From IMG/VR virus record IMGVR_UViG_2681813316_000026: a stretch of 34,941 bases of DNA. One strand, 5' to 3'. The position numbers were made by a program, and so were the translations under genes. The stretch comes from a virus (lineage: Duplodnaviria; Heunggongvirae; Uroviricota; Caudoviricetes). Under the pieces are notes generated by a model that had not been told where the DNA came from, ran no database searches, and saw only the letters and a program-made list of their open reading frames with translations. Of this stretch, positions 33,148 to 33,387 are shown piece by piece (position 1 is the first letter of the stretch; the number at the start of each line of letters is the position of its first letter).

Positions 33148-33325
33148 TTTGCAATATCTGTGAATTATTTGTGAGACGTATATTAATGAACATTGCAAGG
33201 GCTCACAACTAGTAGTGTTGAGAAAGCCATCGGGAAAATGAGGCTAACCCTTTGAATTTACATAGCGCAAAAAGATACCTTTCCTCATAATGTGAGCTAA
33301 TTTTATGTTTCGTTTGATGATCGGG

Positions 33326-33387
33326 TCGGTCTCGAAAACCGGAGTAGGGGCAACTCTACCGGGGGTTCAAATCCCCCTCTCTCCGCC
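33326..33387 (+). other. 3' fragment (about 62 nt) of tRNA-Ser(CGA), putative attachment-site core
   Basis: Matches, from memory, the anticodon stem-loop (CTCGAAA, anticodon CGA), long variable arm, T-arm and acceptor 3' end (GGTTCAAATCC...CCGCCA) of E. coli serU. The 5' acceptor/D-arm is absent. Confidence 0.6.

Follow-up and report, generated by a model that had tools for sequence, protein, structure and literature searches.

The specialised-transducing phages lambda gal and lambda bio arise by imprecise excision, and morons are gained by phages at the att-proximal end. Attachment-site scars, the gain of host DNA next to att, the CMoRE/PD-T4-3 endonuclease, and regulators of the PatE type are all known. 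The described systems that come closest to the locus considered here are attachment sites at the tRNA gene serU and prophage elements at the tRNA gene thrW. The serU attR sites of the prophage in strain MB15 and of prophage SerU-LTIIb, as well as the attP of Salmonella phage ST64B, have the same 62-nt core as our locus, and in all of them the core starts at the same nucleotide. At thrW in O157:H7, the cryptic prophage CP-933H / Sp1 (OI-8) shares the distal block pin-CMoRE-tRNASer'-AraC-IS' with our locus (~99% identity), and a P4-like integrase island comes next. The thrW' pseudo-tRNAs that bound tandem thrW islands are, like the tRNA-Ser fragment discussed below (tRNA-Ser'), 3' tRNA fragments that result from integrase-mediated insertion.

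The locus lies near the right end of a 34,941-nt stretch of tailed-phage DNA, the whole of which is called the window here. CP-933H is a ~12-kb remnant without head and tail genes, whereas the window has a nearly full phage body, lacks the int end, and has a rearranged junction. We propose that the tRNA-Ser fragment in the window is very probably the core of a fossil serU attR, which is carried as passive cargo and has no role in the integration of the present carrier. The features of the window are as follows.

1..31126, minus strand: SfV/ST64B-like prophage body, from tail fibres to immunity, truncated in the early-left operon.
31127..31697, plus strand: second partial copy of the invertible tail-fibre segment, with a truncated tfa and a gp53-like C-terminus (Pfam Caudo_TAP, Gp53-like_C).
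31759..32313, plus strand: Pin-type serine invertase of the tail-fibre inversion system (Pfam Resolvase, HTH_7; pinE in relatives).
32374..33147, minus strand: CMoRE / PD-T4-3 GIY-YIG type IV restriction endonuclease (PADLOC, PDB).
33241..33326, plus strand: P-arm remnant of a serU-type attachment site (ST64B attP homology, MB15 attR match).
33327..33388, plus strand: probable fossil attR core, the 3' 62 nt of serU tRNA-Ser(CGA) (62/62 to W3110).
33389..33666, plus strand: probable captured host DNA, the serU-downstream flank (B' arm) toward yodB (270/278 to W3110).
33667..33721, plus strand: right-end stub of an IS630-family element, ~55 bp, linking the serU flank with the upstream region of the AraC-family gene.
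33971..34714, plus strand: AraC-family regulator (Pfam HTH_AraC, HTH_18); the ORF from GTG starts at 33962.
34756..34941, minus strand: transposase fragment with an rve_3 integrase core (Pfam E 2.9e-12), cut by the window end.

The identity of the fragment follows from alignment with strain W3110, in which serU is a 90-nt tRNA-Ser(CGA) gene located between mtfA and yodB. Window positions 33327-33388 on the plus strand are identical to the 3'-terminal 62 nt of this gene (nt 29-90) at all 62 positions. The first base of the fragment is the second base of the 5' strand of the anticodon stem; the fragment spans the CGA anticodon, and its last bases are CCA. The 5' 28 nt of the tRNA are absent, and in a multiple alignment their place upstream is taken by unrelated sequence with a few scattered matches. 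An earlier interpretation made from the letters of the window alone (the sequence-only reading) had described an exact-looking 62-nt copy of the 3' part of a serU tRNA-Ser that lacks its 5' part, and both points are borne out. Its coordinates, 33199-33387, need correction at either end: the start takes in ~128 nt of phage-arm sequence that is not tRNA, and the end falls one base before the last A of CCA, which is position 33388. The matching segment is annotated as a tRNA-Ser pseudogene in the attR of prophage SerU-LTIIb. A chance match is ruled out, because the 62/62 core runs on into sequence that is 270/278 identical to the native flank.

With the 5' 28 nt missing, the fragment cannot function as a tRNA. 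ARAGORN reports no tRNA or tmRNA gene in the whole window, and Rfam gives no match at the gathering threshold; thus no complete tRNA is present here, and the fragment, when aligned, does match serU. A functional serU tRNA-Ser(CGA) was rejected, as the full cloverleaf with a 5' acceptor strand and D arm is not there. A role of the fragment as promoter or terminator was rejected as well: no promoter-like or terminator-like signal was found in the serU-derived DNA, the sole promoter-like site lies outside it at 33908-33937, and no terminator-like site was detected.

The two sides of the core differ in origin. The left arm is 72-73% identical to the stretch that lies immediately to the left of the tRNA-like core in the ST64B attP, a site arranged as tail fibre - tfa - moron - pin remnant - core - int. 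It is thus related to the ST64B site (72%) and like the serU attR of MB15 (96%). The whole interval 31678-33666 is 96.4% identical to the attR end of the MB15 serU prophage, and this match stops at 33666. The right arm, 33389-33666, is identical at 270 of 278 positions to the W3110 chromosome downstream of serU. Of 5,426 complete E. coli genomes, nearly all have the same sequence at their native serU locus, and it is the DNA that follows the tRNA-Ser pseudogene at the SerU-LTIIb attR, toward yodB. Homology of the right arm to the native locus ends exactly at 33666. No similarity was found between the right arm and the P' sides of the ST64B attP, the 606R7 attL, or the MB15 attL. Since the right arm is host B' and not phage P', the junction has the form P arm - core - B', and it is therefore an attR and not an attP. 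Both the P arm and the full-length 62-nt core are preserved here, as would be expected if the locus were a functional attP or a secondary attachment site that also allowed integration into serU. That possibility is extremely improbable, however, given host DNA in the place of the P' of these three sites and no serU-type integrase either in the window or in the block-bearing relatives examined.

The window and the attR of MB15 or SerU-LTIIb are alike over the first 278 bp of host flank. Beyond this point they differ: in the true attR sites the flank runs into yodB, whereas in the window it is cut and IS630'-AraC-IS' comes next. The stub at 33667-33721 corresponds to the end of an IS630-family transposase gene (its last ~34 nt) together with the element terminus, as found on plasmid pJNE23-001_1. 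It is followed by a short AT-rich spacer, the AraC-family gene, and the rve_3 transposase fragment. An ORF of 67 aa (33519-33722) that runs across the flank/IS630 junction has no family match and was treated as spurious. Stubs related to 33667-33721 are present in effector-rich regions of PPompW / Stx2a phages.

The ancestral serU configuration exists in living strains. A chimeric query was built from the window CMoRE gene, P arm, core, and flank, extended with W3110 flank into yodB. It is covered in full in two genomes (MB15 and RMDEC332) and at 80% in three more, which puts the live serU configuration with this arm at 2-5 genomes. RMDEC332, like MB15, has a prophage of this type in serU, with the same overall order from mtfA to yodB. 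The MB15 locus begins with mtfA - intact serU - three small genes - integrase - xis - yfdR/Q/P - repressor - replication, continues with lysis - terminase - head - sheathed tail - baseplate - tail fibre - invertible segment, and ends with pinE - GIY-YIG - P arm - tRNA-Ser' - flank - yodB. The distance between its two 62-nt cores is 39.2 kb. The integrase of this prophage is 83% identical to ST64B Int, and its phage body is 96-99% identical to that of the window. The MB15 serU site is the live version of the site fossilised in the window. The window element differs from such serU prophages in that it has no serU-type integrase and very probably neither has a partner attL nor lies at the serU locus.

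No tyrosine integrase was found in the window: tblastn with seven integrase types gave no match better than E ~1, the only Pfam recombinase-type matches are the Pin serine invertase and the rve_3 transposase fragment, and Pfam finds no hidden integrase among the unassigned ORFs. In this respect the earlier claim that the window lacks an integrase was correct. Four complete relatives, XJ55, ETEC H10407, FDAARGOS_1077, and O157:H7 TR01, carry the same block in a prophage that is bounded by thrW and a 46-nt partial copy, thrW'. The order in these relatives is thrW-int...tail-pin-CMoRE-tRNASer'-AraC-IS'-thrW'; the intact thrW adjoins proA, and a thrW-type integrase lies beside it. The 46-nt copy has the sequence ATTCGTAATGCGAAGGTCGTAGGTTCGACTCCTATTAT[A/C]GGCACCA (~22709-22753 of locus L001) and starts ~265 nt past the point that corresponds to the window end. 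From AraC-IS' to its end, the window is 99.5% identical to the interior of these thrW-bounded prophages. No copy of the thrW core was found inside the window with 3 mismatches allowed, and so the predicted boundary lies outside it. By analogy with the relatives, the present boundary of the window prophage would be a thrW' located ~265-310 nt beyond the window end. This 46-nt thrW' would be the working boundary of the current element, and tRNA-Ser' would lie ~1.8 kb inside it and not at the prophage end.

These relatives contradict the sequence-only reading where it took the fragment to mark the prophage boundary, because all four hold the block in the interior of a thrW...thrW' prophage. The idea of a duplicated core at an element end survives in part: the core would have been left by an element integrated in serU, but it is not the end of the present element. 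As one of two options, the missing integrase had been placed beyond the left boundary; judging from the relatives, the enzyme is not of the serU type, and it is a thrW-type integrase at the opposite end. Alignments between thrW-type and serU-type integrases reach only 23-31% identity over 58-150 residues, and by this comparison the two appear essentially unrelated.

The same evidence bears on whether the fragment could be the core of a live attR or attL, in a phage that occupies serU and whose integrase has been lost or is located beyond the window. The 3' tRNA core here is exact and adjoins phage genes, the window is without an integrase, and the same phage type sits in serU of MB15 with the same arm, all of which agree with this view. 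On the other hand, the flank of a true attR reaches yodB, while here it stops at 278 bp and gives way to the IS630 stub and AraC-IS'. In addition, block-bearing relatives carry a thrW-type and not a serU-type integrase, and at least one more match to the fragment is present in their records, which fits a serU gene in its usual place. Thus, of the features of a live serU boundary, the 3' tRNA copy is present, and the continuation on the yodB side and the serU-type integrase are absent. Three features of a relic attR are found, namely homology to a P arm, a host B' right arm, and presence in phage genomes and in elements that integrate elsewhere. The stop in the flank, the lack of a serU-type integrase, and the thrW-bounded relatives together argue against a live serU boundary, which we consider very unlikely.

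The block common to the carriers is 1,646 bp long; it begins with the first base of the 62-nt core and ends within the IS fragment. The rve_3 transposase fragment is the last part of this common module and is a partial pseudogene in the annotation of the relatives; the module in common with phage ev099 ends ~28 nt beyond the window end. Three lambdoid phages, ev099, mEp332, and PhiR70_1, have the block in their b-region at 98-99% identity. One of these, mEp332, features in published work on ten E. coli K-12 lambdoid phages (PMC3442831). In ev099 the block adjoins a lambda-type int, and the integrase matches lambda int/xis of lambda-lysogenic laboratory strains. In strain EC19 the block (98-99%) is part of a lambdoid prophage beside IntS and argW. 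Altogether ~517 of the 5,426 complete E. coli genomes carry the module, ~414 of these with a CMoRE/ST64B-like left side.

All copies examined have the same IS630 junction. Relative to three native flanks, the fossil copies also have five fixed differences (33579, 33603, 33610, 33611, and 33614). This common junction and the five fixed differences point to a single origin of the module. The data establish the three-part anatomy of the junction, an existing ancestral state, one origin of the module, and its occurrence in the context of unrelated integrases.

The locus is a clean natural case in phage evolution in which att-adjacent host DNA was carried off and spread among phages with differing integrases, with the ancestral serU state still alive in a few strains. 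A tRNA 3' fragment beside phage genes is no proof of a present prophage end. Programs that call boundaries from tRNA fragments would cut this prophage ~1.8 kb short, name the wrong attachment site, and exclude the AraC regulator. In the portions of the literature on serU, thrW, ST64B, and PatE that were consulted, no description was found of the fossil, of its single origin, or of its spread over three integrases.

The fossil attR may have become phage cargo in the following manner. An SfV/ST64B-like ancestor of the MB15 type would have integrated in serU, creating an attR of the form P arm - core - B'. This attR, together with 278 bp of serU-downstream DNA, would have been fused to the AraC gene and the IS fragment via an IS630-family element, which would later have been reduced to the ~55-bp stub. 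The capture itself could have occurred, most simply, by imprecise excision in the style of lambda gal and lambda bio, or by recombination between co-resident prophages; after capture by either route, the int-attP module would have been replaced. The 1.65-kb block would then have been fixed as a passenger in a non-essential region that has the tail-fibre/Pin/CMoRE genes on one side and the real attachment site on the other, in phages with a thrW-type integrase, the argW IntS, or lambda Int. The complete genomes contain no capture intermediate in the form of an intact IS630 between flank and AraC gene or an AraC gene downstream of native serU. When intact serU followed by the AraC module was used as a chimeric query against the 5,426 complete genomes, nothing beyond the 62-nt fragment was matched, and no more complete IS630 was found upstream of the AraC gene in complete genomes, every copy having the same ~55-bp stub.

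The fossil resembles lambda gal and lambda bio in that a hybrid phage-host junction and adjacent host DNA are located in a non-essential, att-adjacent region, and it too is present in infective lambdoid phage genomes. Unlike them, it is natural, fixed, and widespread (~517/5,426), it occurs in phages with three integrases, and its excision is inferred.

A chromosomal rearrangement (inversion or translocation) instead of imprecise excision might also have brought the serU junction to the thrW prophage, with the homologous bodies, Pin sites, or IS630 copies of co-resident serU and thrW prophages as substrates. The bodies of the serU and thrW versions are 96-99% identical and so offer long homology, and the stub at the flank junction shows the involvement of an IS. 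The locus is moreover prone to rearrangement, as exemplified by the two opposed pin genes of FDAARGOS_1077 and by the window's own junction (see below). However, just 278 bp of serU flank are left, so this route needs extra deletions; the module is part of deposited genomes of infective lambdoid phages, which means that it was packaged phage DNA at some stage; and no rearranged intermediate was seen in the complete genomes. A rearrangement is thus possible but on the unlikely side, and imprecise excision of a serU prophage is kept as the simplest course.

The module is joined to two unrelated P arms at the same nucleotide. The arm is ST64B-like in the thrW myovirus-type prophages and LT-IIb-like, with 95% identity to the LT-IIb attR arm, in the lambda-type phages. 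Different P arms at one nucleotide indicate that the arm was exchanged at or near the core, by either site-specific or homologous recombination. Because the fossil-specific SNPs are kept in both arm lineages, any crossover must lie left of 33536. The joining of two arms at one nucleotide is also a hint that the fossil attR could still be recombinogenic, being acted upon by Int/Xis of a co-resident serU phage or by RecA on the 340 bp that it has in common with every true serU attR, and the retention of the P arm and of the full 62-nt core points the same way. We regard this suggestion as tentative and rather doubtful. If it is true, the fossil would serve as a site of cassette exchange through which the AraC (patE) cargo passes from one phage to another, unrelated one, and rearrangements involving thrW and serU could be driven by it.

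The junction is flanked by cargo on both sides. On the left, the CMoRE gene is the last phage gene before the fossil junction, and it occupies the same place beside the true attR in MB15. Its product matches PADLOC PD-T4-3 (E 2.4e-140) and PDB 9U75 (E 3.7e-172). CMoRE is a type IV restriction enzyme directed against 5hmC/5ghmC phage DNA (PMC12923530). In the serU version of the phage as in the thrW version, it sits at the att-proximal cargo position.

On the right is the AraC-family gene. PatE is an activator of acid resistance and a repressor of the LEE. The window gene and its counterpart at this position in the O157:H7 thrW prophage remnant are ~99% identical in nucleotide sequence. PatE is the product of z0321 on OI-8 (PMC10877973). 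The window gene is the orthologue of the CP-933H/OI-8 regulator, and it may be called patE by inference from its position and family. In complete E. coli genomes, copies of the gene are always linked to the same IS630 stub and serU fossil. For EHEC, the acid-resistance/LEE regulator gene of CP-933H (patE, if position and family are a guide) would thereby be tied to one capture event beside serU.

The copy in the window is also rearranged at the other end of its body. The body reads tail fibres, tail, head, terminase, lysis, replication, and immunity; it is collinear with the thrW prophage of XJ55 at 97-99% identity, and positions 25443-31126 are 99.9% identical to the AF46 prophage. It stops at 31126, the point at which yfdP - yfdQ - yfdR - xis - int - thrW come next in XJ55 and AF46. 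The sequence that follows, 31127-31697, is a direct repeat of 1220-1790 (99.8%), and it is also 99.8% identical to positions 8830-9400 of the XJ55 locus L007. Positions 1-57 are an inverted copy of 31673-31729, the inversion site, after which pin, CMoRE, and the fossil are all inverted relative to XJ55. The junction 31126|31127 has no direct microhomology and only a 6-nt inverted one, and it creates a chimeric ORF (30865-31395) made of the tfa N-terminus and a read-through. This junction was not found in the 5,426 complete E. coli genomes, IMG/VR, or the GTDB representatives, and the chimeric ORF is not on record.

The junction may reflect a true rearrangement between two prophage copies, or it may be a chimera produced in assembly. 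Because of it, the chromosomal location of the window element could differ from that of its relatives. If the junction is real, this copy is without its own int end and is probably immobile. The suggestion that the element is grounded may therefore still fit, although the reason is a different one, namely that the int-proximal end of the body was cut at 31126 by a rearrangement.

Two further layouts were seen among strains with the block. In FDAARGOS_1077, a single invertible tail-fibre segment lies between two opposed pinE genes (locus L003, 3652-6605), beside an Avs2 defence gene and upstream of the CMoRE-tRNASer'-AraC block. This layout suggests a recurrent rearrangement at thrW, either at Pin sites or between prophages. 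In MS 69-1, the CMoRE-tRNASer'-AraC block is found on a non-chromosomal record of 64,057 bp (NZ_CP146678.1, 27485-29927) and a matching copy is found on the chromosome; the record might represent a prophage in excised or episomal form, or else a duplicate that arose in assembly.

Two minor observations concern the phage body. GrlR is a negative regulator of the T3SS. A small ORF on the minus strand between the HNH endonuclease and the lysis genes (20114-20434) has a borderline score of 26.7 bits against Pfam GrlR, for which the cut-off is 26.8. A low-GC pocket at 7001-8000 (0.389 vs ~0.55 around it) coincides with a hypothetical gene on the minus strand (7137-7667), located between the tape-measure and DNA-circularization genes, and this gene may be a moron inside the tail operon.
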